Program-made: the position numbers and the translations under genes
Shown: piece after piece, positions 4,217-64,000 of the stretch
Layout: each line of letters begins with the position of its first letter
How positions within the stretch are numbered: position 1 is the stretch's first letter
Notes under the pieces: model-generated
Told to the model about the DNA's origin: nothing
Seen by the model: the letters and a program-made list of their open reading frames with translations, nothing else
Databases searched by the model: none
Source of the DNA: an uncultured Gammaproteobacteria bacterium
GTDB taxonomy: Bacteria > Patescibacteriota > Microgenomatia > Daviesbacterales > UBA10151
NCBI GenBank assembly: GCA_964394855.1
Contig: CAYMZD010000003.1
Span: forward strand, 22,607-86,606
Direction: 5' to 3'
DNA: 64,000 nucleotides

Positions 4217-4290
4217 TGCACGCGTCTGGATTCGAACCAGAGACCTCTTGCGTGTGATGCAAGCGCTCTAACCGACTGAGCTACGCATGC
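4217..4290 (-). tRNA. tRNA-Val (anticodon CAC), 74 nt, no encoded CCA
   Basis: Hand-folded cloverleaf on the minus strand. Acceptor GCATGCG/CGCGTGC with one G-U pair, D-arm GCTC-AGTCGGTTA-GAGC, anticodon stem CTTGC/GCAAG with loop ATCACAC, T-arm TCTGG-TTCGAAT-CCAGA, discriminator A. Confidence 0.85.
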
Positions 4291-35532: not shown

Positions 35533-36928
35533 TTTTTACCTCTACCATTTTAACTGTTGCCAGAGCGACCCCCAAAGAAAGCCAAAGAAGTTGGGCTATT
35601 TTAGACGATTCTAAAATATCTATTACTAAGGCTGTGACAAGAAGTGATAAAACTCCACTAAAAAGTCCTATGATCACAGTAGCTGGTAAATTTTTGGCGC
35701 TCTTTTTAATAAATCCCCACATTTTTTTCAGTATTAGCCAAAAAACAAGCACTAAAGAGGCTGTCCCCAACAGTCCTGTTTCTCCCAACGAGCGCAAATA
35801 GTCATTGTCTGTGGATATGGTAATTGAAGAGTAACCCGTTCCCAGCAGTGGATTTTTTAACCAAGCTCTGATGGCTCTTGGCCACTCCTCATCTAATCTA
35901 ATACCAAAAGAGCGATAAACTCCCAATTCGGTGGTATTGAGGGGTTCACCCGGAGCCACATCAACCGGTACACCTGCAGGGGTGGCTACTCCGTCGGCAG
36001 CATTCTCAATGGAGAAGGCTTTGGTGGAATTTGGCTTCTGGGGAGGAGGGGTATATTTTGGCCCTCCACCACCTAATAAATTAACCGTTAAGGTAGCCAC
36101 ACTCCTGTGTCTTAGATCAGGAGAAATCACCAGTGCTAAAAGGGATGCCCCCAATAAAATTAAAATTAGTTTTTTTTGTCCCAGCAAGAAAAAGGCCAAG
36201 GATATGCCCAAAATGGCTGCTACAAACGAAGCTCTGGCTGCAGTTAGAGCTAACAACAAAAAACTTAAAGCTCCAGTTAAGCCGATCAAGGCCTTTTTGA
36301 TAATATTTCGCACATACAAAAACATTCCTGCCAATAAAATTAAAACTACTGCCAGATATCCGGCCAAGTCATAATGACCAGCAAAGGTGGAGTTAACTCT
36401 TGCCTCTGGGCTTAAAAATAAAATTAAGCCTTTGGAGAACTCCCTATTGGTAGTGGAAATAACCGGGAAAGATAGCCACTGTTGTCCAAAACCGTAAATT
36501 ACCACCATCAAAGTGGTAAAAAACATTACTTTTAACCAATCTTTTACTTGCGCTAAGGAGGTAAATGCACTGTAAGCTACAAATAAAAGAATCATTGATT
36601 CCACTCGCCTAAGATAGTGTAATAATCCCAGATGGGGGGAAACTGTTTGGGTCAGAAATATGGCCGAAAAAAGACTCAAGCCACCAATTACCCAAAATAA
36701 AGCTACTACCTGGAATAAATTGCTAGATAAAAAGCTTTTTAAATTTGGTAAAATTGCCAAAAACCACCATAAAACCACCACAGCAATTAAAAAATCTTCT
36801 AACCGAATAGCCACATATGTTCCCGGAACATTAAATAAGGGGAATTTTGGGTAAAGTGGTATAAAGATAGAAAGACCCAAAACTGCCCAAAAAAGATATT
36901 TTTTACAAATTAAAGATAACTTCAACAT
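35519..36928 (-). CDS. O-antigen ligase/polymerase-like (Wzy_C/WaaL-like) membrane protein
   Basis: About 10-12 TM helices. It has a large Pro-rich external loop (GGGGPKYTPPPQKPNSTKAFSIENAADGVATPAGVPVDVAPGEP) followed by LTAARASFVAAILGISLAFFLLGQKK, which is typical of the Wzy_C region. Confidence 0.5.
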   Translation of the reverse strand: MLKLSLICKKYLFWAVLGLSIFIPLYPKFPLFNVPGTYVAIRLEDFLIAVVVLWWFLAILPNLKSFLSSNLFQVVALFWVIGGLSLFSAIFLTQTVSPHLGLLHYLRRVESMILLFVAYSAFTSLAQVKDWLKVMFFTTLMVVIYGFGQQWLSFPVISTTNREFSKGLILFLSPEARVNSTFAGHYDLAGYLAVVLILLAGMFLYVRNIIKKALIGLTGALSFLLLALTAARASFVAAILGISLAFFLLGQKKLILILLGASLLALVISPDLRHRSVATLTVNLLGGGGPKYTPPPQKPNSTKAFSIENAADGVATPAGVPVDVAPGEPLNTTELGVYRSFGIRLDEEWPRAIRAWLKNPLLGTGYSSITISTDNDYLRSLGETGLLGTASLVLVFWLILKKMWGFIKKSAKNLPATVIIGLFSGVLSLLVTALVIDILESSKIAQLLWLSLGVALATVKMVEVKNENK

Positions 36929-41172: not shown

Positions 41173-42558
41173 CTATAACTTACTGTATTGGTGGACAAAA
41201 CCTACTCCATGAAAATTAAAAGTTTCAATTTTTCGATAACCTAAATTATCTAATTTTTTCTTAAGTAACCTATCTGGATCTGTTATATCTACCAGATATT
41301 CAAACAGAAAAACTTCCTTTGCAGCAATACTATTTATATCATTTAAGGTTTTGGCTGGAATTTTTTTAAGCCCTGGTTGGACATTTAGTGCTTTTTGCGA
41401 ATAGTATAGATATGGAGAAAAAACTCCATTACTTTCTAAAAGAATTACTGACTGCTCATCCGCCATCTCTTCCACCCGATTCACAGCTCCTTTCCAATCC
41501 TCTCTTTGAAATTTAGGATTTATAAAGTAGGCAGCAAGACTTATTAGACTTATTAGACAAATTAAACTGATGATCGGAAAAATTATCTTCCCAGGTAGCG
41601 AAAAAACTCCTTTAGCCAACAACAGATAAAGGGGGGGTAAAATAAAAATCATTCTAAAATAAGCTAAAACAGGAATATAAAAAGAAATTAAAAATGCCAA
41701 CCCTAGTGGCAAAATTAACCACAAAAGTAGTAATTTTATAGCGTTTTCTAATTTTCTTATGCCTATCCAGAGGGCCAATCCATAAATAATTCCCACCAGG
41801 AAAATTAACCCAGCATAAATCATCTTGTTATCAATGCTCACCCTGCCAAAGAAAGTCTTTATGGGAATTAAAAGTAGCTGTTTTAAATTTGCTCCTCCTA
41901 CCACAGAAGCCCATCCTGGAAGTGAAGTTGCCGCCCCAGTACCTGATATAAGCTGTCTAGGAAAAACAAAAAGCCAGGGAATGAAAAATGTGAAACTTGT
42001 AGCCAATAAAAAACCGACTTTTGTAAAAAGTTTGTCTTTAGTCCAAATTATAAAAACAAGTTGTGCCGGAAAAATTAAATATGGTAAATAATCAGAATAT
42101 AAAACTAAAACATTAGCCAAAATATATCCCGGCCAAATTCTTTTGAATAAAAAATAAAAAGATAAGGTAGCAGCAAAAGTGGCTAAAGAATACATTCTGG
42201 CCTCTTGTGAATAATAAATATGAAGAGGCGCCAGGGCCATAAAAAGTGACGCCAAAGTAGCAATCTTTTTATTAAATAATTCTTTGCCCAAAAGATATAC
42301 CAACCAAACAGTAGCCACTCCTAAAACTAGCGAAGGAATCCTCACCCATACTTCCCCCACTCCACCCAATTTTATCCATATCCAAAGTAAGGCAAAATAT
42401 GCCGGTGGATGAAAATCTCCAATCGGGTATTTAGTCACAAAATCCCAAAATGTTAAATTTTTGGCAGAAACTATATTAATGGCCTCATCTAACCACAAAG
42501 ACTGATCCAGTTTAATCAGTCTTAGTATTACAGATAAAAATAAAATTCCATGGATCAT
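41173..42558 (-). CDS. GT-C-type membrane glycosyltransferase, PMT_2/ArnT-like (GT39/GT83-like)
   Basis: The first periplasmic loop carries LWLDEA (DE motif), followed by LAPLHIYYSQEARMY, which resembles the PMT/ArnT family. About 12 TM helices. Confidence 0.7.
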   Translation of the reverse strand: MIHGILFLSVILRLIKLDQSLWLDEAINIVSAKNLTFWDFVTKYPIGDFHPPAYFALLWIWIKLGGVGEVWVRIPSLVLGVATVWLVYLLGKELFNKKIATLASLFMALAPLHIYYSQEARMYSLATFAATLSFYFLFKRIWPGYILANVLVLYSDYLPYLIFPAQLVFIIWTKDKLFTKVGFLLATSFTFFIPWLFVFPRQLISGTGAATSLPGWASVVGGANLKQLLLIPIKTFFGRVSIDNKMIYAGLIFLVGIIYGLALWIGIRKLENAIKLLLLWLILPLGLAFLISFYIPVLAYFRMIFILPPLYLLLAKGVFSLPGKIIFPIISLICLISLISLAAYFINPKFQREDWKGAVNRVEEMADEQSVILLESNGVFSPYLYYSQKALNVQPGLKKIPAKTLNDINSIAAKEVFLFEYLVDITDPDRLLKKKLDNLGYRKIETFNFHGVGFVHQYSKL

Positions 42559-51916: not shown

Positions 51917-53308
51917 ATGCTAAACAACAACTTGAATGTAATCCTCTTAACTGTCTTTGCATTTATCCTCCGCCTGAAATTTATGTCTCCTTGGCTTGAG
52001 GACTGGGATTCAGTTCAGTTTGCCATTGCCATGGATTCTTACTCTTTATCCGAAGGGATACCGCATGCTCCAGGATACCCCCTATATATTTTGTTGGGTA
52101 AATTTTTATTTTTATTTTTTCATGATCATAATTTGTCTTTGTCTTTTTTAAGTAGCCTTTTAGGATCTTTATCTGTTGTGCCGCTTTACTTATTAGCCAA
52201 TAAGATGTTTAATCAAAAAGTAGCACTACTTTCAAGTCTAATATTTATTTTTTCTCCTGTTCACTGGACCCTGTCGGAAATTGCTCTTACCAATATGCCC
52301 GGTCAGTTTTTTCTCCTACTTTGGATCTATTTATTATACAAATTTATGAATAATTTTAAGGCAAAGGTAATGCTCTCGGGTTTGGCCGGTATCATTTTGG
52401 GGGTGCGGTTTACAGAATTTCCCATCATTATCTCTTTACTTATACTAATATCATTAAAAAAATTTAATATCAGAAAAGCTCTTTTTACTATCTGCTCGTT
52501 TTTTCTAGGATTAGCCTCATGGATGGTTCCTCTAATGTTAATAAGCGGGATTAATCAATTCCTTGAAAGTTATGGTTTTATTGCTAATTATATTTTTAAA
52601 CATGATGCTCTTTTAGACCAGGGAAGATACGGTCTTCAAACAATCAACATCAGATTTGAAAATTTTCTACTCCTACTTAAGTGGTCATATACAGTACCAT
52701 TTACGATACTCGGAACAATAACAGTTATTTTCGTAATAAAAAATCATTTATTTAGGGAGTTTAAATATTTATTCTTAAGTCTTTGGGCTGCTTCTTATCT
52801 ACTACCCCTCCTGTTTTTTTATAATCTAGAAGTTACTCGATATACTCTACCCCTTTTACCACCTCTGGCTATATTAACTACCACACAACTTTATAAATTA
52901 ACAAAAAATAAGATCGCTCTCGCTGGGGTAATAGGTATCATTTTGGGGTTTCTTATTTATCAGTCACAAGATCAGGTTAGGAGATTTAAAAATAGCGTTC
53001 CACCCACAGTTGCATCAGTAGATTATGTCAGGAAAAATTTTGCTCCACACAATACAACTATTATCCCCACAAATACTTTACGTCATTTCCAATATTATGG
53101 ATCAGAGTTTCCATTAATAGATTTAAAAAATGCCAATTACAATCAAGATTTCAAAAATAAAACTATCATCATAGATTTTCCCGGAACAAAAGATAAATTT
53201 AAGGAGTTATCAAACTATGATATAACTAAAAGGGTAGATTTTTTCGGAGATAAAGATATTTATAATAGAATAAATAAAGTTTCAATATATATTTTGAAAC
53301 CAAAATAA
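51917..53308 (+). CDS. DUF2723/TMEM260-like polytopic membrane protein (putative GT-C)
   Basis: The first loop EDWDSVQFAIAMDSYSLSEGIPHAPGYPLYILLGK matches my recollection of the DUF2723 hallmark (WDSGEF ... HPPGYP). About 11 TM helices and a C-terminal soluble tail. Confidence 0.5.
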   Translation: MLNNNLNVILLTVFAFILRLKFMSPWLEDWDSVQFAIAMDSYSLSEGIPHAPGYPLYILLGKFLFLFFHDHNLSLSFLSSLLGSLSVVPLYLLANKMFNQKVALLSSLIFIFSPVHWTLSEIALTNMPGQFFLLLWIYLLYKFMNNFKAKVMLSGLAGIILGVRFTEFPIIISLLILISLKKFNIRKALFTICSFFLGLASWMVPLMLISGINQFLESYGFIANYIFKHDALLDQGRYGLQTINIRFENFLLLLKWSYTVPFTILGTITVIFVIKNHLFREFKYLFLSLWAASYLLPLLFFYNLEVTRYTLPLLPPLAILTTTQLYKLTKNKIALAGVIGIILGFLIYQSQDQVRRFKNSVPPTVASVDYVRKNFAPHNTTIIPTNTLRHFQYYGSEFPLIDLKNANYNQDFKNKTIIIDFPGTKDKFKELSNYDITKRVDFFGDKDIYNRINKVSIYILKPK

Positions 53309-53319
53309 GAAAATATTTT

Positions 53320-53955
53320 ATGAATAATAAACAGTTAAAAAAAATTTGGAACCAGGTTCCTCCTGATTACTATGAAGTGGGTATCAAGAGAAATTTTTTT
53401 CAATGGCTTTGGTTTTATTGGAAAGCCCAAAACTTAATTAATTTTATTAAAAATAAGGATTTTCACACCATACTTGATATAGGGTGTGCTGCGGGAACAT
53501 TAACTAATAAAGTTTCCCAAATATTACCTAATTCTAAAATCACTGGAGTAGATGTTTATTCTAGCGCACTAGCTTTCGGTAAAAAAAGATACCCTCATAT
53601 TAATTTTGTATTATCAGATGCTCATAAATTACCTTTTAAGAAAAACTCATTTGATTTAATTATTTGCATTGAAACAATTGAACACGTTTCTGATCCAGAA
53701 AAAGTCTTTATGGAAGTGAAACGTGTTCTTGGGCAAAACGGAACTTTTATTTTAATCATGGATTCTGGATCTTGGCTTTTTAGAATTGTCTGGGAAATAT
53801 GGGAAAAATCTAGGGGTAAAGTCTGGCAAGGAGCACATCTTCATCCTTTCCATCATAATGAATTGGAGAAATTGATTAAAAAATCAGGATTTAAAATTAT
53901 TAGAAAAAAATTTTCCAATCTGGGAATGGAAGTTTCTTTTGTATTGAAAAAATAA
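53320..53955 (+). CDS. Class I SAM-dependent methyltransferase (Methyltransf_11-like)
   Basis: ILDIGCAAGTLTNKV (motif I), TGVDVYSSAL, SFDLIICIETIEHVSDPEKVFMEVKRVL. Confidence 0.8.
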   Translation: MNNKQLKKIWNQVPPDYYEVGIKRNFFQWLWFYWKAQNLINFIKNKDFHTILDIGCAAGTLTNKVSQILPNSKITGVDVYSSALAFGKKRYPHINFVLSDAHKLPFKKNSFDLIICIETIEHVSDPEKVFMEVKRVLGQNGTFILIMDSGSWLFRIVWEIWEKSRGKVWQGAHLHPFHHNELEKLIKKSGFKIIRKKFSNLGMEVSFVLKK

Positions 53956-53956
53956 C

Positions 53957-55405
53957 TTAATAGGGAAACCTAGCAAGCACTGGTAGGGCTTTATCATTAA
54001 AATCATTGGGTAATGGATTGATATCTTCAAAGTACACTTTAACACTCTTATCGTTAAATAGAAGTTGCAGGGCATTAGCTCCAGATAAAATATAAAAAGC
54101 CTGTTTAGATGAGCTACCCCACTCATCAGCTATAAAAGGATAATGAGGGTCATTTTTAAAATAGAAGATAGTTGACTTTACTGGATGAGGATATGTGTTT
54201 TTTACATCGGTCAGTAAAGCCTTGGCAGCCGTGGCTCTCTTGGCGGCCCAATAAGTAATCTTATTTAATTTACTAGTCTGATAAGAAATTATAAACAAGC
54301 CCAAGATAAAAAAAATCGCCCAAAATCTTAAAAATTTCTTTTGATAAAGTGGTGCTAAAAAGGTGGCCAATAGAAGAGAAAACCATACTAGCGGTAGTTC
54401 AAGATAATAAATAAACTTTTTTTGAGGAAATAATAAAAATGGGGAAATAGATACCAAAAATAAGCATATCAACAAGGTAGTCTTGCCCAAAGAGATCGCA
54501 AATTTCTTATATCTAACTAATAAAGTGATAATAGACGCAAAAAGGAAAAAAAGTGCGGGAACAACAATCTGGACATACCAAGGATACCACTTAATAAAAT
54601 TGGCATTGACGGTAAATTTCGGACCGACAAAATCTACTACCACCTCGGATATGCCAAAACTCCACAAAATATACCAACCCAAACTATTAATAAAAGTTTT
54701 TAAATTAAAAATTGGCTGGTAAACCGACTGGGGGGGCAAACTGGTAAACAAAGATGTAGAAATTAAATAAATAAAGGAGATTAAAAAATACCAAATGAGA
54801 TGAAGGGAAACTTTTTTATAAAGAAATATTTCTAAAATTAAAAGGATTATTGGCAAAGTAATGGCTATTTCATGGCTAAAAATAGCCAAGGAAAAAGAAA
54901 TTATCGACAAAATATAAAATTTTTGTTTTTGACTGGCTTTAAAAATTAAATAAAAAAGGGTGCAGAGTAAAATAAAAAAAGTCGCCAAAAGTGTTTGTAC
55001 TGATGCCAAATAATAGATCTCCACATTATGAACACTACTTAGTAAATAAATTAATACCGCTATACTTGCTGTGATTTGATTTTTGAAAATTTTATGGGCC
55101 AGCTGAAATAGCAACACACCAATAGCCACGATTAAAAAAAGATTAACCAGATGATAAGGAAACGGATTTAAATTAAATAATTTATACATTATCAAATTGA
55201 AAGTTTCTCTTGATAAAGGACGATAAAAAGCATATTCTGCCTGTTTTAAGATAAAGAAACCAGTAATGTCAGTTAACTCTTTATCTGCCACTGTGTTTAA
55301 ATGAAAAAAATCATCTTGGGAAAAATATGAAAAAAGAGCATTAAAATTTATAAATAAGATAAATAAAATACCCACTAAAAACATATAAATTAATTTAATG
55401 TTCAT
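53957..55405 (-). CDS. Polytopic membrane protein, possible GT-C (DD motif in first loop)
   Basis: FSYFSQDDFFHL in the first extracytoplasmic loop, about 12 TM helices, and a C-terminal soluble domain of about 100 aa. Confidence 0.4.
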   Translation of the reverse strand: MNIKLIYMFLVGILFILFINFNALFSYFSQDDFFHLNTVADKELTDITGFFILKQAEYAFYRPLSRETFNLIMYKLFNLNPFPYHLVNLFLIVAIGVLLFQLAHKIFKNQITASIAVLIYLLSSVHNVEIYYLASVQTLLATFFILLCTLFYLIFKASQKQKFYILSIISFSLAIFSHEIAITLPIILLILEIFLYKKVSLHLIWYFLISFIYLISTSLFTSLPPQSVYQPIFNLKTFINSLGWYILWSFGISEVVVDFVGPKFTVNANFIKWYPWYVQIVVPALFFLFASIITLLVRYKKFAISLGKTTLLICLFLVSISPFLLFPQKKFIYYLELPLVWFSLLLATFLAPLYQKKFLRFWAIFFILGLFIISYQTSKLNKITYWAAKRATAAKALLTDVKNTYPHPVKSTIFYFKNDPHYPFIADEWGSSSKQAFYILSGANALQLLFNDKSVKVYFEDINPLPNDFNDKALPVLARFPY

Positions 55406-55414
55406 TTTAATATT

Positions 55415-58006
55415 TTAATCTTTATCTATTGACTGATTTAAAATTATTTTGTCCATAATTACTTCCATAGGAATATTGGGGAATCGAACCACCAGTCCTT
55501 TTAGTATAGTTCCGCCCACAGGCAATTTAAAGTTATAGGTATGAAAATTACCGTCCATCATAATCGGAGTTTGTATTTTTATATCTTCTTGTCTGGATAA
55601 ATATTTATCAGACAAAGGATAAATCGATAAATTTAAATAATTTTGAACTCCATTTTGTAATTCTGCTGCCTCATGTTCATTTTTTATCTCTGCAAATGGA
55701 TGCTCTATAATAAAATCCGCCAAATCAGAATCTATTTGACTAGAGTTTTTAAGAATTTCCAATTCTTGAATACCCGGAAAATCATCTTTTGGGGTCTCTA
55801 AAATAACTATTTTAAAAAATCTGGCATTTACTGGAGGAAAAACATCCTTGATTTGGCCATTGATGACACTATCCCTTTTTGCTTTATAAATTGTTCTCCA
55901 CTCATCAGTCTCATCCTTTTTAATTTGATACTCATATATACTAGGTATACGCGGTTCATATGAGAAAAGTCGTACTTCTGAAAAAGTATAATCCTCCCCA
56001 AAATTAACTACAATAAAGGGCTTTTTACCCTTTACCCATTCAACTTTATTTGCCTCCCACCTAGTATTGGGATTACCATCAACAATATACTTAGCCACAT
56101 TTTTTGCTTCATTGTCGCTGGAAAATACTTGAGCAACCTGTCTAAAATAACTTCTTTCCCCAAGATAAGTGACCAAAGCCTCCCGATAGTTAGGATCATG
56201 AATTATGCTAAAATCTATTTTTTGAGGCCTTTTTGTAATAGAACTGTCAACATAAGGATACTTTTTAATTTGATTTACCAGACTACTGGCTTTCATGACA
56301 ATTTGTAAATTCACAGGTTGATATGATGGAAAATAAGTATCAAATTTAACTAATCCATTAATACTTCTGCTACCCTTGTCATTACTGACTATCATAGATC
56401 TATACACAACTTGGTTATTATTTATTTCTATCCCAGGACCATCAATATAATTTTCAAACAGTTTAGCGCTCTTTAAGTCTATCTTTTCACCCTGCGGACG
56501 GATTTGAGAATTTAATTTATCAATATTAATTAATTGATGCTTGCTGTTATAGAAAAAGTGATAAGCTTTTGTAAAATCATTACTCTTTTTATCTTTAATT
56601 AACTCCTCGTAAGTATCGACAATTTTGATATTATCGATTTTGACTTTATAAAAACTGGCCAGTGAGCTTTCAGTGGAATATACACCGGTTCTTAATATAT
56701 CCCAAAATAAATTTTGCACAACTGGATCAGCAACCGTATCAAAAAGAAATAAAGTTTTACCCTCAAGTGAAGGCACTTCTTTTTTAAGATCGGCAAAGAA
56801 AATCTTTGTAGCTACACTTCTTTTTATCAGTTCTCCTTTAATCTGTGAACCAGCCATGAGATGGATGTAGATGAGTGCTACTGCCAATATAAACCCCATT
56901 ACTTTTAAAAGAATTCTTTTGTTGGAAAAAAATAGGATTTTTAAATAAATTGCTAAAATTACAGCAAAAAAGGGAAGCCCGAAGAGAAGATATCTTTGGG
57001 TTGATGGATGAATGGTAGATGGATTAACTAAATAATAATTAATATACCCTGCAATCCAGAGCAGAACAAAAAAAACTATAACCTTTTTTAAACTAGGAGA
57101 AATTTTGATGAATAGAAAAAATGAAATGATTACTAAAATAAAAGCAGTAGCCAAGATAGCTGGATCAGTACTAGAAGAAAGGTCAGAGGGAATTAAAAAG
57201 TTACTCAAATTTATCACCAATGTACCCAGTGATGAAAAATTCAAATATGGAAGGTAATCTTTGATTTGGCTTGTGCCTAGGTTGCTTCTTTCAATGCCAA
57301 AAAAATCAAGAATATGCAAGATATAAATCAAGAAAGTTATCAAAAAATATGGGGAAAGTCGCAAAAACGAATTTCTAAAAATTTTAAGATTTAGACTAAA
57401 TTTGCTGGAAAAATATAAATCTGAAAAAAATAGTAGAGGGAAAAGGCTGTGAGCTCTTTGGGTAAAAAGAAGGGTTAGCGCACCATAAAAAATAATTATG
57501 GAAAAAAATAAAAAAAATGATTTCTTTTGTAGGTAAGTCTGATAAAGTAACAGGAGTAAAATTACACCAATCATATAGATGAGGCTGGAGACTGAAACAG
57601 AAGACATAAACATTATTTCTGCTCCAACATATCCCGAGGCCAGTATCAAACCCGAAAGATAAGCTATTAAATAATCTTTCGTAACTCTGAAAACAAAAAA
57701 GTAAACTACCAAGCAAAGCAGAATATACAAAATTATTGATGCTCCAAAGTAGACAGTAGGATTTTCCTTAAAAAATAAATATATTGGATAATAGCTTAAA
57801 GACCAACCCTGATAAGGAAAATGGAAAAGACCTCCTTGTTGTAAACGATAAAGCAGTACATAATCATCTCTCCAAAAATATAGATTCCCAACGAAACCAT
57901 ATGTCAAAAAAACTATTACTGAATACGATAATACTATCAAAAAAAGAAAAGATTTTTTCCACATATCATCTGCCCATAATATAATCGATATGATATACTC
58001 ATTCAA
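55415..58006 (-). CDS. Large polytopic membrane protein (863 aa, YfhO-like layout) with a C-terminal discoidin (F5/8 type C)-like carbohydrate-binding domain
   Basis: N-terminal multi-TM region with FWRDDYVLLYRL in the first loop. The C-terminal KYIVDGNPNTRWEANKVEWVKGKKPFIVVNFGEDYTFSEVRLFS matches the discoidin DG-x-x-x-T-x-W ... vDLG core. Confidence 0.5.
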   Translation of the reverse strand: MNEYIISIILWADDMWKKSFLFLIVLSYSVIVFLTYGFVGNLYFWRDDYVLLYRLQQGGLFHFPYQGWSLSYYPIYLFFKENPTVYFGASIILYILLCLVVYFFVFRVTKDYLIAYLSGLILASGYVGAEIMFMSSVSVSSLIYMIGVILLLLLYQTYLQKKSFFLFFSIIIFYGALTLLFTQRAHSLFPLLFFSDLYFSSKFSLNLKIFRNSFLRLSPYFLITFLIYILHILDFFGIERSNLGTSQIKDYLPYLNFSSLGTLVINLSNFLIPSDLSSSTDPAILATAFILVIISFFLFIKISPSLKKVIVFFVLLWIAGYINYYLVNPSTIHPSTQRYLLFGLPFFAVILAIYLKILFFSNKRILLKVMGFILAVALIYIHLMAGSQIKGELIKRSVATKIFFADLKKEVPSLEGKTLFLFDTVADPVVQNLFWDILRTGVYSTESSLASFYKVKIDNIKIVDTYEELIKDKKSNDFTKAYHFFYNSKHQLINIDKLNSQIRPQGEKIDLKSAKLFENYIDGPGIEINNNQVVYRSMIVSNDKGSRSINGLVKFDTYFPSYQPVNLQIVMKASSLVNQIKKYPYVDSSITKRPQKIDFSIIHDPNYREALVTYLGERSYFRQVAQVFSSDNEAKNVAKYIVDGNPNTRWEANKVEWVKGKKPFIVVNFGEDYTFSEVRLFSYEPRIPSIYEYQIKKDETDEWRTIYKAKRDSVINGQIKDVFPPVNARFFKIVILETPKDDFPGIQELEILKNSSQIDSDLADFIIEHPFAEIKNEHEAAELQNGVQNYLNLSIYPLSDKYLSRQEDIKIQTPIMMDGNFHTYNFKLPVGGTILKGLVVRFPNIPMEVIMDKIILNQSIDKD

Positions 58007-58008
58007 GA

Positions 58009-60033
58009 GTGAAGAACTTTTTTATTAATCCGCCAATAATTACTATAACTCTAGTTTATATTCTTTTAATTCTCCTGATGTTGCCGCTTCGGAATGTAGC
58101 ATATTTGGATGATTTCGCCTATATCAAAAATGTCGAAGAGTTTATTGAAACCGGTAATTTAAGGATAACTGATTGGGCTTCCACCAGCTTAGTTTTCCCT
58201 ATTTTATGGGGCGCTTTATTTGCCAAACTTTTTGGCTTTTCCATCAAGATATTGCATGTATCCAATTTGGTCTTATTCTATTTTGGCCTGATGGCATTTT
58301 ATGGTATATTAAGGCAGTTTAATCTTGATAAATTTAAATCTGTCGTCTTTACCCTATTTCTTTTAAGCTACCCTTGGGTTTTCCAATATCTTTTTTCATT
58401 TAACTCTGATACTTTTTATGTCTCTTTAATAAACTTCACGATTTATTTTTATCTTAAGGGTTTGAGTACCAATAAATTGTTTTATTATTTTTTGGGATCT
58501 TTATTCGCAGGATTTTCTTTTTTAACCAGGCAATTGGCTATTACATTTCCCATTGCCATCGGTATAACTTTATTTTTAAAATTTAAAATTGATAAAAAGG
58601 TTGACTGGTCGGCCTTAGCGGTATCCTTATTGCCCATAGTTTTAATTATCATCGGTTATTATAAATGGATCTCCATAGCGGGAGCTTCTGCAGCCGGTTA
58701 TATTTTTTTTAATGAATACACCAAAAGGGCAATAATAGATAGACTGATTCCTCCAAATTTGCAAAGATTTGGTGACACCAGCAGACTTTATTGGGATTTA
58801 TTTTTGCAAAGGCCGTCTATATATTTCGTGTCCATTAATAACCACATACTCCCATTTTTCCTTTTATTTGCGCTTCAAATAACTAAATTTAGAAAATTTA
58901 TAGTATCAAATTTTAAGTCCTTAGCAACAACATCTTTAATTTTTTCTTTTTATGTTTTTTTAGTGTGGACTGTCTGGCAAGATAAAATTCTCTACCGGAT
59001 CCCCCAAACAATTTTTAGTATGGATAAAATGATTGATAACTGGCAATTTATTTGGCCTAGACTTTTCTTTTTAGGTATTCCTTTTTGGATTGGTATTTTT
59101 TTATTAACCTTTAATAAAATTAGGAAATTATTTTTTATTTTAAAACGGCCGTTAATTTCAGGAAGAGTATTTTTTTCTATATTTGCCCTTTTTTCTTTTT
59201 TTCTTTTTTATAAAGCCTTTGAAGATATTTTTTCCACTAATTTAAGACCTCAATTATATACTGATTCATTGCTTCGCTCCAGTGCTTTTTTGAGAACTAT
59301 TTATGTATTATTAAACCCTACCATTATCATCGAGACGTTTAAAGAAATTTGGATAATTTTACTAATTCTGTTTTTGATTTTCATATTTTTTTATGTAACC
59401 ATTATTAAAAATAAGCTAAGAATAAAGAATCTAAATTTACCCATTTTATTGATAACCTTGTTATTTTTAGGACACTTTTCCATCACCAATTTTTTAGCCC
59501 ATTCCCATTGGGAAGAATATACCATTGCTTTTGTACCATTTATAATTTTAATATTGGCACTGATATTAAAAAATATTCCCCTATCTAAAATTAGGGCTGT
59601 TATTTTAATTTTTCTCTTACTGTTTTTTTCTTTACAAATTACCAGAAATCGCTATCAGGAAAATGGCGCTACTTGGGAACTGGGAACTCAAATGGTGAGA
59701 TCTGGGATAGATCCAAAACGGGTGGTAGTTTTTAATATGTCATGGCGTCGCTACTGGCTCTGGCAAGATGCTTTTAATAAGATGGTTAACCAAAAATACA
59801 GCGGGGATAAATATAAAGTCAGGCCGGCAGAGTTTAACCCAGTTGATGAAAAATTACTGGAAGGAGTTTTTTACCAAACAAGGACTATTAATACCAGTGA
59901 AGATATCTCTCGTGGCTATGATGATAAATCTGTTATTCTTCAATCAGAACCTACTTGGCTTTTTGCAGGTAAAAGTTTTATTGTCTGGAAAAAATTTATT
60001 GTCACCAAGGAGTTTCACAAAGCAGGGACTTAA
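58009..60033 (+). CDS. Polytopic membrane protein, 674 aa, possible GT-C
   Basis: YLDDFAYIKNVEEF in the first loop and about 14 TM helices. The C-terminal roughly 120 aa are soluble. Confidence 0.4.
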   Translation: MKNFFINPPIITITLVYILLILLMLPLRNVAYLDDFAYIKNVEEFIETGNLRITDWASTSLVFPILWGALFAKLFGFSIKILHVSNLVLFYFGLMAFYGILRQFNLDKFKSVVFTLFLLSYPWVFQYLFSFNSDTFYVSLINFTIYFYLKGLSTNKLFYYFLGSLFAGFSFLTRQLAITFPIAIGITLFLKFKIDKKVDWSALAVSLLPIVLIIIGYYKWISIAGASAAGYIFFNEYTKRAIIDRLIPPNLQRFGDTSRLYWDLFLQRPSIYFVSINNHILPFFLLFALQITKFRKFIVSNFKSLATTSLIFSFYVFLVWTVWQDKILYRIPQTIFSMDKMIDNWQFIWPRLFFLGIPFWIGIFLLTFNKIRKLFFILKRPLISGRVFFSIFALFSFFLFYKAFEDIFSTNLRPQLYTDSLLRSSAFLRTIYVLLNPTIIIETFKEIWIILLILFLIFIFFYVTIIKNKLRIKNLNLPILLITLLFLGHFSITNFLAHSHWEEYTIAFVPFIILILALILKNIPLSKIRAVILIFLLLFFSLQITRNRYQENGATWELGTQMVRSGIDPKRVVVFNMSWRRYWLWQDAFNKMVNQKYSGDKYKVRPAEFNPVDEKLLEGVFYQTRTINTSEDISRGYDDKSVILQSEPTWLFAGKSFIVWKKFIVTKEFHKAGT

Positions 60034-60039
60034 ATAGAA

Positions 60040-60675
60040 ATGAAAACCATACTTTTAACAGGAGCAACTGGTTTTATCGGTTCATATCTTTTGCCAGAGC
60101 TGGTCAAAGATTTTAAAGTTAAATGCTTGATAAGGCAGGATTTAAAATTTACACATCCTAATGTAATTTTAATTAAAGGAAACCTTCGTTCAGAAAAAGC
60201 CATCAGAGACTCCACCAGGGGAGTATCAGCTATTATTCATCTGGCAGCCCAAAAATATAATATTAAAGACGCCGCCAAGATAAGAAAAGTTAATGTCGGA
60301 GGAACTATTAACTTGTTAAAAAATGTAAGTGGCGCTCATTTTATATATGGCAGTACCTGGCTTGCGGCATATCCACAAAAAACAGGACTTTATGGTCTAA
60401 CTAAAAAAAGGGCCGAGGAGGCTATTAAAAAAAGCGGTGCAGATTATACTATTTTACGATTACCGCACATTTTTAGCCATAAAAAATCTCATCAGATTTT
60501 TATCAGATACATATTACCTGTTTATTTAAGATTAAGGTACGGCGTTAAACCTATCTATCAGCCGATTGAAATAACCAAGGTGTGTAAAGCTATCAAAAGA
60601 ATCATTAACAATAAAAAATTTTATAGAAAATCTTTTTATGTAGTTGATGAAAAAACCCTACAACCTGTCATTTAG
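60040..60675 (+). CDS. Short NAD(P)-binding Rossmann protein (atypical SDR/epimerase family), 211 aa
   Basis: MKTILLTGATGFIGSYLLPEL has the GxxGxxG motif, and YGLTKKRAEE is a YxxxK motif. It is shorter than classical extended SDRs. Confidence 0.6.
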   Translation: MKTILLTGATGFIGSYLLPELVKDFKVKCLIRQDLKFTHPNVILIKGNLRSEKAIRDSTRGVSAIIHLAAQKYNIKDAAKIRKVNVGGTINLLKNVSGAHFIYGSTWLAAYPQKTGLYGLTKKRAEEAIKKSGADYTILRLPHIFSHKKSHQIFIRYILPVYLRLRYGVKPIYQPIEITKVCKAIKRIINNKKFYRKSFYVVDEKTLQPVI

Positions 60676-61456
60676 TACATTTGTAGGCCATCATATAGCC
60701 TAACCCGGATATAAATTTAGAACTTGTTTCTACTTTATAAAAAAGATTAAGCAAAATTTTAACTAATTTCGTACCCATCTTAATTTTTTTAAGGTGGCAA
60801 AGATAATCCAGCGCCCTTAGGGGACTGGGGAAAATCAAATAACCCTCTTTGTCTTCAATTTTAAAACCTGCTTTCTCCAACAAATTTTTAAACTCCCCTC
60901 TTTTATATTGAATTTCATAGCCATAATTATAAATGCCCAATTTTTGCAAAAAACCAATAAATAGAAATCTCCCCCATAAGTCATACTTAACTGGTATTGA
61001 AATCATGGCTACTCCATCGGGTTTTAAAATTCTCCTCATCTCCCGCAAAGCTTTACTGGTATCGGGAAAGTGTTCTACCGTACCAATGGAAACAATAAAA
61101 TCAAAACTACTATTGGGAAAGGGGATCTTTCTCACATCTCCATATTTTGCCCTGACATATTTTGCCTCCTTCTTAACAGCTTTTAATACTTTTAATGAAA
61201 TATCTATACCAAAACATTTGGCCCCCTTTTTATGAGCCCATAATAACAATTTTGTATTTTTAACTTCATCCCAAAGGTCTGATTTAAAAAGCAATTTGCC
61301 CTTAAAGTCACCGAACCAATTGGAAATAATTTGTTTTTCTCTTTTGGAGAAATAAATGGTAGTCGGTATTTGGGCCATTTCTTTTGTTTCATCAAAGACT
61401 TGATCCCAAAATTTTTGTAAGTTGTTAGTCGACCATTGGTCCGGTGAAAGTCTCAT
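60668..61456 (-). CDS. Class I SAM-dependent methyltransferase
   Basis: KCFGIDIS, SFDFIVSIGTVEHFPDTSKALREMRRILKPDG (Methyltransf_11 motifs II/III). Confidence 0.75.
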   Translation of the reverse strand: MRLSPDQWSTNNLQKFWDQVFDETKEMAQIPTTIYFSKREKQIISNWFGDFKGKLLFKSDLWDEVKNTKLLLWAHKKGAKCFGIDISLKVLKAVKKEAKYVRAKYGDVRKIPFPNSSFDFIVSIGTVEHFPDTSKALREMRRILKPDGVAMISIPVKYDLWGRFLFIGFLQKLGIYNYGYEIQYKRGEFKNLLEKAGFKIEDKEGYLIFPSPLRALDYLCHLKKIKMGTKLVKILLNLFYKVETSSKFISGLGYMMAYKCTK

Positions 61457-62690
61457 AACTGTCAGGCCTCCTTATTAACTGCAGCTTTCCCTTCTCTATC
61501 ATATATATTGGCGGTCGCATAGTGGTAAATTGGCTGGAGCGGGACATAGTGTATGCACCACAATCTTTAATAACTATCAAGTCCCCCTCTATCACTTTAG
61601 GTAATGTTTTGGATCTGGCAAAAAAATCAGGGGTTAATAAACTACTACCTGCTATATGATATTTTTTAATTTTTCCCGTCTTACCAACAACAAATAAATC
61701 TCTTTCGGTAAAGAAAACGTTTTCCGGAATAAAAGTAATGCTGGCATCAACAAAAACCCAGTTACCCTTGACGGCAATCACTTTACAAATCACCACTCCA
61801 GCATTACTAACAATAGAGCGTCCCGGTTCAAAAATTATTCTTAAACCTTTTAAATTATATTTATCAATTCCCTCCTTTACACTCCGGGAAATCCTCTCGC
61901 CAAAATGTTCAATCTCTGCAACTTTTGGTTTAAATTCCAGTCCTGCGAAATTTTTTAAAATGGCCTGGATGGGGGAATATCTAAGAAGCGAGGGTGAAGG
62001 GATGCCTCCTCCTAAATCAATATATTCAATGTTAATATTTTCTTTCTTTAAATTAAAAGCCAATTTCATCAAAGCATCAACGGTTTTTAAGAAAGGCTGA
62101 GCCGATAAAACTTGGGATCCAATATGAGCATGTAAACCAATAAAGTTAATGTGCTGCAATTTTGATAGCTTTTTTATTTCCTCTAAAGAATCTTCCAATG
62201 GTATACCGAATTTTGATAAATAAAATTCCACTGTTTTGGCCAAATTGCCGCTGACATTAGGATTAATTCTCAAACCTACATTAATTTTCCTTTTCAAGTT
62301 TTTACCAATTTCATTGGCTCTTTGAAGATCTGCCGGCGAATCTCCATTATATGAATAAATACCTTGCCCGAAGGCTTGAGATAGATCATCCATGCTTTTT
62401 CCTGGTCCATCCATAATAAGCCAACTCTGTTTAAAACCTGCTTTTTGACAAAGATAGAGCTCCATACCTGATGAGATTTGGGCGCTTGAACCCAGAGCTT
62501 GTAATATTTTTAAGACTTGCAGTTCATTATTGGTTTTAACGGAAAAGAAAATTTCAACGGGATAATATTTAGAAAAAGCTTTTTTAAATCTTTGGTAATT
62601 TGATTTTATTAGATTAGCATCAAAAACAAAAACCGGGGTACCTGTTTTTTTAGCTATGTTTCTTATTGGTATCCTCGCAAAATTTTTCAT
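61425..62690 (-). CDS. PLP-dependent fold-type III enzyme of the Orn/DAP/Arg decarboxylase family (LysA/NspC-like)
   Basis: GTPVFVFD ... FFSVKTNNELQVLKIL (PLP Lys), GLHAHIGSQ, LGGGIPS, FEPGRSIV, GDLIVIKDCGAYTMSRSSQF. The usual CESGD Cys appears absent in a hand alignment. Confidence 0.7.
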   Translation of the reverse strand: MKNFARIPIRNIAKKTGTPVFVFDANLIKSNYQRFKKAFSKYYPVEIFFSVKTNNELQVLKILQALGSSAQISSGMELYLCQKAGFKQSWLIMDGPGKSMDDLSQAFGQGIYSYNGDSPADLQRANEIGKNLKRKINVGLRINPNVSGNLAKTVEFYLSKFGIPLEDSLEEIKKLSKLQHINFIGLHAHIGSQVLSAQPFLKTVDALMKLAFNLKKENINIEYIDLGGGIPSPSLLRYSPIQAILKNFAGLEFKPKVAEIEHFGERISRSVKEGIDKYNLKGLRIIFEPGRSIVSNAGVVICKVIAVKGNWVFVDASITFIPENVFFTERDLFVVGKTGKIKKYHIAGSSLLTPDFFARSKTLPKVIEGDLIVIKDCGAYTMSRSSQFTTMRPPIYMIEKGKLQLIRRPDSYETFTGPMVD

Positions 62691-62727: not shown

Positions 62728-63720
62728 CTATCGAGTTCGCCAGTTTTTAGGAAGTAAGGAACTGTCAATTTCCACTTTAGTAAACTTTGGCCTCTGATAA
62801 CCTAACTTTTTAGCATAGCCCCAAGTTTTCTTTATCCCATTAAGTAGTGTGGTTTTATCTTTATAACCCAAAATATTTTTCGCCAATGTGTGATCAGGAA
62901 TGGCATTTTGGACTTCTTGGGGTCTTTCATCCAAATAAATTGGCGGAATTTTTATTCCACTAACATCCTGTATGATCTCTGATAACTTATTAAGGGTATA
63001 ATCTTTATCTGCTCCAATATTAAATGTCATTCCGGAAACCTGCAAAAAACCACACTTGTGTAAAGCAGCAACCACATCATCGATATAAGAAAAGCATCGA
63101 CGCTGATTTCCATCTCCATAAATGTAATATGGTTTTTTCTCAAGGAGTGCATTCATGAAAATAGTGACTACGTTTCTGTAGGGATCTTGCATATTTTGTC
63201 TTGGACCATAAACATTATGAGGACGAGCGATGACATATTCAAAATGGTGGATTTTAGCTAGAATTGGCAGACTTTTTTCCATCATTAATTTACTAACACC
63301 ATATAAATCTTCCGGCTCTGGATCATCGATTTCTTTAAAAGGAGTTTGTATTGCCCCGTAAACAGCAATACTTGAGGTTACTACTATTTTCTTTAAACTA
63401 CATCTTAGCGCAGGCACTAAGGTATTAATGAAGGTATTCCAATTTCTGGAAGTAATATCAATGGGTGAAAATTGGGCTTTATTTTCAGCAGCACAAGCAG
63501 CCAGATGATAAATCAGCTCTGGCTTAATCTTCTCAATTAGCTTAGCGGTTTGCTGACTATTTCTTAAGTCACATTTGAAAAATTTAGCTTTTTTATTGAC
63601 ATGGGAAAGCTTGCCGCCGGAAAGGTCATCCAAACAAAAAACCTTATTCTTTTCTTGAATAAGTCTATCAACTAAATGAGAACCAATAAAACCAGCGCCA
63701 CCAGTTACTAAAACTTTCAT
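62728..63720 (-). CDS. NAD-dependent epimerase/dehydratase (extended SDR: UDP-sugar 4-epimerase, 4,6-dehydratase or UXS-like)
   Basis: MKVLVTGGAGFIGSHLVDRL, a YGVSKLMMEK (YxxxK) motif, and a length of 330 aa. Confidence 0.85.
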   Translation of the reverse strand: MKVLVTGGAGFIGSHLVDRLIQEKNKVFCLDDLSGGKLSHVNKKAKFFKCDLRNSQQTAKLIEKIKPELIYHLAACAAENKAQFSPIDITSRNWNTFINTLVPALRCSLKKIVVTSSIAVYGAIQTPFKEIDDPEPEDLYGVSKLMMEKSLPILAKIHHFEYVIARPHNVYGPRQNMQDPYRNVVTIFMNALLEKKPYYIYGDGNQRRCFSYIDDVVAALHKCGFLQVSGMTFNIGADKDYTLNKLSEIIQDVSGIKIPPIYLDERPQEVQNAIPDHTLAKNILGYKDKTTLLNGIKKTWGYAKKLGYQRPKFTKVEIDSSLLPKNWRTR

Positions 63721-64000
63721 TTAATGAACCTCTTTTTACTAAACAAGCTGGCTAATCGATAATAAAGAATTACCGATACCATTTTCCTGGCTGTTTTAAT
63801 ACCTCCGATTAAAGGTCCTGAAATTTTTGATTTGCCGGTCCTAGCTCCATATCTAACCGGCACTTCTTTGATGGTAAAACCGTGAAGGAGCGCCAAAATG
63901 CTCAGTTCTGGTTGAAAATGGACTCCACCCACTGTAAAAAGTGATTTTATTTTTTCATAAGCATGGCGGTTTATTAATCTAAATGTTGCTCCTGGATCTG
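63717..64000 (-). CDS. GT2 polyprenol-phosphate glycosyltransferase-like, C-terminal fragment (N-terminus beyond the window end)
   Basis: The frame is open to the window edge. It reads ...GATFRLINRHAYEKIKSLFTVGGVHFQPELSILALLHGFTIKEVPVRYGARTGKSKISG, which is a DPM1/ArnC-like C-terminal block. Confidence 0.6.
   Translation of the reverse strand, partial: DPGATFRLINRHAYEKIKSLFTVGGVHFQPELSILALLHGFTIKEVPVRYGARTGKSKISGPLIGGIKTARKMVSVILYYRLASLFSKKRFIK

Follow-up and report, generated by a model that had tools for sequence, protein, structure and literature searches.

A cysteine-less diaminopimelate decarboxylase-like protein encoded in a conserved envelope-glycan cassette of uncultured bacteria

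What does a homologue of amino-acid decarboxylases do among glycan genes when the catalytic cysteine (Cys) of its relatives is missing? This question is raised by a stretch of 64,000 nucleotides (contig CAYMZD010000003.1, positions 22,607 to 86,606; referred to as the window) from a relative of Candidatus Daviesbacteria, a lineage of the candidate phyla radiation (CPR). The IleRS of this host shares 59-66% identity with named Daviesbacteria proteins. The minus-strand gene at positions 61425-62690, here named DEC, encodes a 421-aa pyridoxal 5′-phosphate (PLP) enzyme of the alanine-racemase (AR) fold, also called fold III, as defined by its open reading frame and the Pfam domains PF02784 and PF00278. 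Its residues identify DEC as a Cys-less, non-LysA protein that resembles diaminopimelate decarboxylase (DAPDC) and should be competent for PLP binding. Within a conserved envelope-glycan cassette DEC forms the PLP subunit, and the cassette further comprises a methyltransferase-fold partner (PAR), a short-chain dehydrogenase/reductase (SDR), a membrane glycosyltransferase of the GT-C type and, in some cases, a glycosyltransferase of family 2 (GT2). While the fold and the cofactor are already known, the active-site configuration and the pathway context are new.

The initial annotation had described DEC as a fold-III homologue of the Orn/DAP/Arg decarboxylases, and this assignment holds. Both parts of the two-domain superfamily architecture are present, the N-terminal β/α-barrel Orn_Arg_deC_N (PF02784; 3.6e-39, 135.1 bits) and the C-terminal β-sheet domain Orn_DAP_Arg_deC (PF00278; 37.4 bits), both above the gathering cutoffs, and the top sequence match in the PDB is Aquifex LysA (3e-54). 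All motifs cited earlier were located, namely FSVKTNN (residues 49-55; 62526-62546, minus strand) with K52 as the PLP Schiff-base Lys, HAHIGSQ (187-193), GGG (227-229), EPGR (288-291) and EGDLIVIKDCGAY (368-380). Compared to LysA, about 20 aa are inserted after GGG. All PLP-contact residues were found (K52, H189, G227-229, E288, R291 and Y380); in enzymes of this type they serve as Schiff-base Lys, as ring-stacking His, as Gly loop, as Glu to the pyridine nitrogen, and as Arg and Tyr to the phosphate. The AlphaFold2 model of DEC (pLDDT 90.2, pTM 0.90) matched DAPDCs first (TM 0.85), followed by D-Orn/D-Lys decarboxylase, FslC and BtrK. Given the conserved K52, GGG, E288, R291 and Y380 and the confident DAPDC-like model, DEC is presumed to be an active PLP enzyme.

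The active-site loop of DEC reads GSSLLTPD (residues 348-355; 61626-61649, minus strand by translation, HMMER alignment and residue table) and replaces GP(I/V)CE(S/T)GD of LysA. In the HMMER alignment IAGSSLLTPDFF of DEC stands opposite IVGPICETGDFL of Aquifex LysA and IAGGLCESSDVF of Methanocaldococcus (M.) jannaschii LysA, and the anchors G348 and D355 enclose no gap. Therefore Leu351 takes the place of the Cys and Leu352 that of the Glu. This agrees with the hand alignment of A-G-S-S-L-L-T-P-D to the C-E-S-G-D loop on which the initial annotation had based the loss of the Cys, and no Cys is present in the loop. The specificity helix is changed as well. The segment DASITFIPENVF (residues 315-326; 61713-61748, minus strand by translation and alignments) replaces DAGMNDLxRPxxY of LysA, and PENVF lies opposite RPxxY, so that the carboxylate-binding Arg and Tyr are lost and E323 is gained. 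In DAPDC the Arg on this helix binds the distal carboxylate of DAP (FigC paper, PMC7857480). Relative to LysA, the family to which DEC belongs has gained E56, E323, R330 and R384. E56, given as three residues past the end of the FSVKTNN segment, is family-specific (91% in the family; Asn in LysA), and R384 is located four residues beyond the Tyr of GAY. The gains of E56/E323 and R330/R384 point to a larger substrate that carries cationic as well as anionic groups, the latter phosphate or carboxylate.

According to the name carried by relatives, DEC could be a divergent housekeeping LysA, and the top NCBIfam, PDB and fold-search matches are indeed all LysA. We nevertheless consider this extremely improbable. 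The DAP-binding Arg/Tyr and the Cys-Glu pair are replaced, and the score against the LysA equivalog TIGR01048 (257 bits) stays below the cutoff of 297.9 bits, which argues against a diaminopimelate decarboxylase. True LysA-DapF fusions come only lower down in the profile search, at about 250 bits. Moreover, DEC was always found within a glycan cassette and never with dap genes, it falls outside the Cys-bearing group in a neighbour-joining (NJ) tree, and CPR bacteria generally lack most of amino-acid biosynthesis.

DEC is not an isolated case. A word-indexed search returned eight close relatives only (41-100% identity), followed by a drop to generic LysA at about 32%, and a profile search of 1.84 billion representatives retrieved many further members, with true LysA-DapF fusions appearing only from about 250 bits downwards. 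The family thus sampled comprises at least 126 to 149 sequences from CPR, Acidobacteriota/Thermoanaerobaculia, Gammaproteobacteria, Anaerolineales and Myxococcota. A scan of GTDB species genomes yielded 64 loci (L007-L070), mostly from Thermoanaerobaculia and other Acidobacteriota, with uncultured Gammaproteobacteria (40% identity), Anaerolineales, Myxococcota, Methylomirabilota, Syntrophaceae and one Bathyarchaeum as further hosts. All 64 of these matches are metagenome-assembled genomes (MAGs), and no isolate among the GTDB species representatives carries the family; one MAG, SMAG_U13441, holds two copies (L022 and L029). Publicly, the relatives are named 'diaminopimelate decarboxylase', 'type III PLP-dependent enzyme' or, for one member at NCBI, 'alanine racemase', the last name stemming only from an overlap of Pfam PF01168. 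Neither the curated Pfam and NCBIfam models nor solved structures or the literature were found to describe this subfamily or its cassette.

For a comparison of residues, 329 sequences were aligned to the family hidden Markov model (HMM). The alignment splits cleanly by position 351 into 176 sequences with and 149 without Cys. While all 176 LysA-like sequences carry Cys at this position, Leu is found in 140 of the 149 others. Position 352 is Glu in 147/176 of the LysA-like sequences and Asn in 106/149 of the non-Cys group, with Leu in the subclade of the window. At position 355 the Cys351 group has Asp (111) or Cys (65), and the non-Cys group Asp throughout (149/149). The PLP residues are kept in the LysA-like sequences and, as K52, GGG, E288, R291 and Y380, also in the non-Cys group (K52 in 144/149), and H189 is replaced by Tyr in many members from Acidobacteriota. 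Conserved family-specific residues in a core set of 126 sequences are E56, P231/S232, W311, S317, E323, R330, L351, N352 and R384. A compensating Cys that is universal was sought in the same core set and not found; Cys occupies position 50 in 66% of the sequences, where DEC has Ser.

The NJ tree was calculated with capped Kimura distances and evaluated by a purity test over 100 bootstraps. The core family forms a split free of Cys-bearing sequences in 63/100 bootstraps, and in 77/100 if at most one such sequence is allowed inside, a support that is moderate only. The mean distance is 1.29 within the family and 2.23 between the family and the Cys group. Both this split and the score below the LysA cutoff place DEC apart from housekeeping LysA. 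Neither of the two outcomes that would have refuted the initial annotation, a Cys in the loop and a firm place with LysA, was obtained.

A second Cys-less subtype is recognized by the loop VGPLLY(P/S/V)xD (P0009, P0010, P0013, P0017, P0063 and P0218, and the Bathyarchaeum locus L056, 7911-9281). Of these members, at least three (P0009, P0010 and L056) lack the HIGSQ block altogether. P0218 is fused to a PAR-like domain, and the archaeal locus L056 has no PAR nearby. In P0146, another member of the family, an N-terminal FHA (phosphothreonine-binding) domain is fused to the decarboxylase-like domain, which hints at control by Ser/Thr phosphorylation in some lineages.

The genes around DEC are those of an operon on the minus strand in the order GT2 - SDR - DEC - PAR. 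SDR330, an extended SDR of 330 aa that resembles GalE and other epimerases/dehydratases (62728-63720, minus strand; Pfam Epimerase, 7.5e-48; 128 bits against NCBIfam galE, which is below the cutoff), lies immediately upstream of DEC. Its start codon overlaps the stop codon of the GT2 gene, of which the 3′ end (63717-64000, minus strand; Pfam Glycos_transf_2) is cut by the end of the window. The complete gene of 244 aa, similar to polyprenyl-phosphate hexose transferases, is present in L001 at 8240-8974; its matches to NCBIfam AglJ, dolichyl-P-hexose transferase, PpgS and ArnC are all below cutoff. Downstream, PAR (262 aa; 60668-61456, minus strand; open reading frame with Pfam Methyltransf_11) overlaps DEC by 32 nt, and an AGGAGG Shine-Dalgarno sequence is located within the 3′ end of DEC, 9 nt before the ATG of PAR. 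By this arrangement PAR is translationally coupled to DEC. A scan of 59.8-64 kb for promoters and terminators gave nothing above chance.

Convergent with PAR is a short SDR gene (211 aa; 60040-60675, plus strand; Pfam NAD_binding_10 and Epimerase), with orthologues in the closest CPR loci L003 and L006. The protein is about 100 residues below the normal length of an extended SDR and has no C-terminal substrate domain; the stop regions of the two convergent genes overlap (60668-60675). The neighbours of DEC are thus the two SDR genes and the methyltransferase-fold gene that the initial annotation had listed. Beyond the short SDR follows a membrane glycosyltransferase of the GT-C type, PMT_2/ArnT-like and about 650-674 aa long (58009-60033, plus strand; Pfam PMT_2, 1.2e-08), which is likely the final transferase of the cassette.

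To quantify the conservation of this arrangement, neighbours were counted by targeted HMM and BLAST searches in 60 loci with at least 2.5 kb of downstream sequence, the window and L001 being one locus counted twice. A PAR orthologue was present in 58/60 loci, an adjacent SDR in 56/60 and a GT-C within 6 kb in 43/60, and all three were found together in 43/60. The threshold for PAR was 100 bits; in nearly all loci the orthologues reached more than 200 bits, and generic methyltransferases less than 60. Only about 12 loci have the GT2 gene close to the cassette, and a polyprenyl-phosphate GT2 is also present in CPR loci of the cassette. Furthermore, fusion proteins exist for SDR-DEC (P0129, P0131, P0135), PAR-DEC (P0218) and DEC-PAR (P0143), and DEC is thus functionally coupled to SDR and PAR. 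Conserved across phyla and backed by these fusions, the cassette ties DEC to glycan loci more firmly than the initial annotation could show.

The gene order varies between lineages. The arrangement of the window recurs in related contigs, and in more distant CPR-like contigs DEC-PAR is followed by a radical-SAM/SPASM gene. Acidobacteriota, Anaerolineales and Myxococcota share the order DEC-SDR-PAR-GT-C, with GT-C directly after PAR in Acidobacteriota; SDR-DEC-PAR is found in L008, a MAG from Gammaproteobacteria, and in L071, a Logan metagenome contig. In L071 a 576-aa membrane protein of the LIC_10190 family (DUF8201; 590-2320) is encoded directly upstream of SDR-DEC-PAR in the position of GT-C, and it may be an alternative membrane transferase. 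The radical-SAM/SPASM genes (about 350 aa) stand right after PAR in the place of the SDR (L004, 7516-8568; L005, 11598-12644). A different radical-SAM gene (423 aa; L001, 6898-8169) is located a few genes upstream of the cassette of the window, just past the window end.

Genes in the neighbourhoods are typical for polysaccharide loci and include Wzx, GT2, GT4, AsnB-like, Wzm/Wzt and carbamoyltransferase genes. The window itself holds at least six PMT_2 proteins and one Wzy_C protein. GT-C/PMT_2 genes are dense between 34087 and 60033 (34087-35532, 41173-42558, 51917-53308, 53957-55405 and 58009-60033), and they are accompanied by the Wzy_C gene (35519-36928), a gene for an 863-aa membrane protein with F5/8 type C (discoidin) domain (55415-58006) and one for a canonical methyltransferase (53320-53955). 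At the gathering threshold, Rfam gave a single match across the whole window, a tRNA gene at 4217-4290 on the minus strand. The SDRs of the cassettes do not constitute a single orthologous group; at least two subtypes occur, one HpnA/SdmB/OleD-like and one thioester-reductase/PRK07201-like, and the SDRs of the window are weakly similar to either subtype of the other phyla. An NCBIfam scan of the SDR, GT2 and GT-C proteins of the cassette revealed no family above cutoff.

For PAR, the initial annotation had named a methyltransferase, and the fold is indeed that of a class-I methyltransferase, but an ordinary methyltransferase is not established, the S-adenosylmethionine (SAM) motif I being replaced. 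The match to Methyltransf_11 (70.8 bits) begins only at position 11 of the profile, and in place of the glycine-rich motif I (GxGxG) PAR has KSDLWDEVKNT (61253-61285, minus strand by translation and comparison with 63 orthologues). The consensus K-[LS]-D-L-W-[ND]-E-[AV]-x-N-T holds across phyla and in both PAR fusions, with K58, D60, L61, W62, E64 and T68 in 63/63 and N67 in 62/63 orthologues. The canonical methyltransferase of the same window has LDIGCAAG as motif I. Measured against the features of class-I SAM methyltransferases, PAR has the fold and the acidic residues and lacks the E/DxGxGxG motif. Since the ribose- and adenine-binding acidic residues D85 (in GIDIS, 63/63) and D107 (61/63) as well as motif IV are kept, an adenosyl ligand is probably still bound, while the methionine side of the SAM pocket appears to have been rebuilt. 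The AlphaFold2 model of PAR is moderate (pLDDT 66, with only 10 homologues supplied), and Foldseek placed it next to generic class-I methyltransferases (phosphoethanolamine N-methyltransferases, RebM/AtmM and the SpnF cyclase) that give no functional resolution. On these grounds PAR belongs to a subfamily of the methyltransferase fold that is distinct and has no name so far.

Which reaction follows from the loss of the Cys? All AR-fold decarboxylases reportedly share the active-site Cys, which acts as catalytic base in ODC (PMC7857480). In the D-Orn/Lys decarboxylase DOKDC, about 1% of the activity is left in the C387A variant (PMC13294871), and the PDB entry 9cpz of this enzyme bears the title 'C387S variant ... 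complexed with PMP and 4-guanidinobutanal'. The combination of pyridoxamine 5′-phosphate (PMP) and an aldehyde is the signature of decarboxylation-dependent transamination, a term defined in PMC7497351. In view of a Cys that is otherwise reported as universal, the activity of C387A and the content of 9cpz, a family that has fixed Leu is unlikely to be a routine releaser of amines, unless another proton donor is used. The amine product appended to the glycan, which the initial annotation had suggested, is for the same reasons not established. A non-amine outcome is at least as likely, because the lost Cys is reported universal and because of the DOKDC variant data.

We tentatively favour, at a probability that falls short of even, a reading in which DEC decarboxylates a non-DAP amino-acid moiety with protonation at C4′, yielding PMP and an aldehyde, coupled to SDR, followed by alkylation through PAR and delivery by polyprenyl phosphate and GT-C. 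In such a pathway the PLP of DEC would form an external aldimine with a non-DAP α-amino-acid moiety, and CO2 would be expelled by DEC. Because a conserved Leu sits at the usual position of the Cys, the resulting quinonoid is probably not handled in the classical way; it would be protonated at C4′ to give PMP and an aldehyde by decarboxylation-dependent transamination. The adjacent or fused SDR would then either reduce the aldehyde carbonyl or supply a keto-sugar to which PMP returns the amino group; the latter route would amount to an Arn-like synthesis of an amino sugar with the loss of CO2 as driving force. The product would be alkylated by PAR with a non-canonically bound adenosyl cofactor, carried on polyprenyl phosphate and moved to the envelope by GT-C. 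The near-obligatory SDR and the SDR-DEC fusions would fit a carbonyl intermediate that is passed between DEC and SDR.

A further-reaching reading, a three-enzyme route so far unknown, is rather speculative. Here the loss of the Cys would have turned DEC either into a decarboxylation-driven aminotransferase, which irreversibly aminates an SDR-made keto-sugar as a fold-III replacement for ArnB/DegT-type enzymes, or into an aldehyde synthase, which converts a SAM-derived 3-amino-3-carboxypropyl (acp) group installed by PAR into a 3-oxopropyl or 3-hydroxypropyl group. If true, this route would provide a new, GT-C-delivered envelope decoration in CPR, Acidobacteriota and other uncultured lineages.

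Several points weigh against the favoured decarboxylation with C4′ protonation. All of its steps beyond the binding of PLP are inferred. Since DAPDC-type enzymes invert configuration, their proton may come from a donor other than the Cys, and with Lys52 or water an amine could be released even by a member that lacks the Cys. A PMP-forming enzyme requires a carbonyl acceptor in each turnover, and none was identified. The SDR step is only loosely defined, since at least two SDR subtypes accompany DEC and a radical-SAM/SPASM gene stands in their place in two loci. SDR330 itself appears GalE-like and reads SSIAVYG in place of the TDE motif of dehydratases, and GalE-like enzymes do not normally release a keto-sugar. 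Finally, the model leaves the loss of the glycine loop in PAR unexplained.

A close rival, in essence the view of the initial annotation, is an ordinary amine-forming decarboxylase with a new free or tethered substrate (e.g. Orn, Lys, diaminobutyrate, a carboxy-aminopropyl or a sugar-linked amino acid), which we regard as possible, if doubtful. Lys52 or water would serve as proton donor, PAR would N-methylate the product, and the amine would then be attached to the glycan. All characterised proteins of this two-domain architecture are decarboxylases (PMC7857480), the PLP- and carboxylate-labilising residues of DEC are intact, and E323 occupies the position at which ODC, ADC and CASDC have the Asp that binds the substrate amine (PMC7857480 and our alignment). 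The occurrence of phosphoethanolamine N-methyltransferases among the nearest structural matches of PAR points in the same direction, and a carboxynorspermidine-type or sugar-linked amino-acid substrate, as considered in the initial annotation, is possible. Such an enzyme would have to work without a reportedly universal Cys, whose removal costs DOKDC about 99% of its activity, and with a strictly conserved hydrophobic Leu in its place. The canonical SAM loop is absent from PAR, and the near-obligatory SDR and the SDR-DEC fusions are left without a role.

Other fates of the carbanion and non-decarboxylase roles are improbable in our view. They include the formation of a C-C bond with an aldehyde or ketone made by SDR, the racemisation or epimerisation of a tethered amino acid, and a regulatory pseudoenzyme comparable to antizyme inhibitor. 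The loss of a proton donor would be expected for a carbanion that has to persist until it attacks an electrophile, but both C-C bond formation and racemisation are without precedent in the two-domain DAPDC architecture. For a racemase one could cite the NCBI name 'alanine racemase' of one member, which reflects only the PF01168 overlap. Antizyme inhibitor, which is among the PDB matches, demonstrates that the fold can lose catalysis, whereas the strict conservation of the PLP lysine and of the cofactor contacts speaks against a pseudoenzyme.

Whatever the reaction, a Cys reported as invariant in AR-fold decarboxylases is absent from a whole natural family and replaced by a conserved Leu, and this family is a natural experiment on reaction specificity (amine versus aldehyde/PMP) in the AR fold. 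The product of the compact cassette of three to five genes is probably an envelope substituent not yet described, in lineages with almost uncharted surface chemistry; the cassette may point to an undescribed pathway of cell-surface modification and is small enough for heterologous expression, which makes it testable. The current names of the family genes in CPR and Acidobacteriota genomes could be misread as a capacity for lysine biosynthesis.

Among known systems, LysA (TIGR01048; PDB 1TWI, 2P3E, 2QGH) is the best match of DEC in sequence (27-29% identity) and structure. Both have the same two-domain fold (TM 0.85) and share K52, HxHIGSQ, GGG, EPGR and GAY. DEC differs by Leu in place of Cys351, by the exchange of Glu352 (Leu in DEC, Leu/Asn in the family), by the lost Arg/Tyr and by a glycan context rather than one of lysine biosynthesis. 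DokD/DOKDC (NF052544; PDB 6N2H, 8D2Y, 9CPZ) ranks second, both in the HMM scores (183.6 bits) and in structure. DOKDC is an enzyme of the DAPDC clade that no longer acts on DAP and the nearest characterised non-LysA paralogue. It has Cys387 where DEC naturally has Leu, and DEC stays far under the DokD cutoff of 700 bits.

FslC/FigC, SbnH and BtrK are likewise derived from DAPDC, and their Cys loop and specificity helix are remodelled for large anionic substrates (TM 0.81-0.83 to DEC). FigC uses R387 deep in the pocket for the citryl tail and keeps C354 (PMC7857480). R384 of the Cys-less family may be the equivalent of this R387. These enzymes differ from DEC by the Cys retained in FigC and by their contexts, which are siderophore and antibiotic clusters and not glycan loci, and DEC scores 131.5 bits against NCBIfam FslC (cutoff 500). 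The exosortase-A-associated PLP decarboxylase (TIGR03099, a hypothetical equivalog) is a LysA-like fold-III enzyme of exopolysaccharide loci, with an example on plasmid H24. DEC matches it in two partial stretches with 127.2 bits (cutoff 478.45), and the inspected cassette loci showed neither exosortase nor PEP-CTERM genes.

The microcin enzymes MccD and MccE represent another comparison, for which the mcc operon of the E. coli plasmid MccC7-H22 (NC_010257.1, L073) was used. MccD is an acp transferase of methyltransferase fold, and the N-terminal domain of MccE is an AR-fold decarboxylase that converts acp to aminopropyl (PMC10491745; PMC7857480). RefSeq names MccE only 'GNAT family N-acetyltransferase' and MccD 'class I SAM-dependent methyltransferase' (L073, 4147-6704). 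By analogy, PAR could transfer acp from SAM to a sugar, phosphate or amine, and DEC could decarboxylate it to aminopropyl, an explanation which we judge unlikely. As for PAR and DEC, mccD and mccE overlap in one operon, the sole documented precedent for a methyltransferase-fold gene overlapping an AR-fold decarboxylase gene, and the decarboxylase substrate is a tethered amino-acid group. A tethered acp would retain the free α-amine and carboxylate needed for PLP chemistry, and the rebuilt SAM-methionine loop of PAR would fit a reoriented SAM. MccE moreover has P96, P231 and P322 in common with the Cys-less family and is placed by NJ on the family side of the split, possibly by long-branch attraction.

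The direct tests of MccD were negative. It scores 27.5 bits on the PAR HMM, which is in the range of generic methyltransferases (true orthologues >200), its motif I is LDLACSTG compared to KLDLWNE in PAR, and the pairwise similarity is confined to the generic methyltransferase core. The MccD structure 5FCD was absent from the phmmer matches of PAR at E≤1 and from the Foldseek top 50, and PAR was rejected as a specific MccD homologue. MccE keeps the Cys (AGFNCFECD), lacks E56, E323, R330 and R384, and prefers the LysA profile (181 bits) to the family profile (138 bits). The gene order of the microcin operon is reversed, it contains neither SDR nor GT-C, and the SDR of the cassette would be left unexplained. 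The resemblance appears to be one of logic, not of membership, and MccD/MccE serves as an analogy. A literature search for decarboxylase-methyltransferase glycan cassettes or aminopropylated glycans retrieved nothing relevant, and one for the Cys of BtrK and SbnH returned to PMC7857480 alone.

In its overall composition the cassette resembles the Arn pathway (ArnA/ArnB/ArnC/ArnT). No Arn model reaches its cutoff with any component of the cassette, ArnB is a fold-I and not a fold-III enzyme, an aminotransferase, and the formyltransferase of ArnA is unrelated to PAR. Nevertheless the inventories run parallel, as an analogy only, since both consist of an SDR, a PLP enzyme, an N-modifying enzyme, a polyprenyl-phosphate GT2 and a GT-C of the PMT_2 type.

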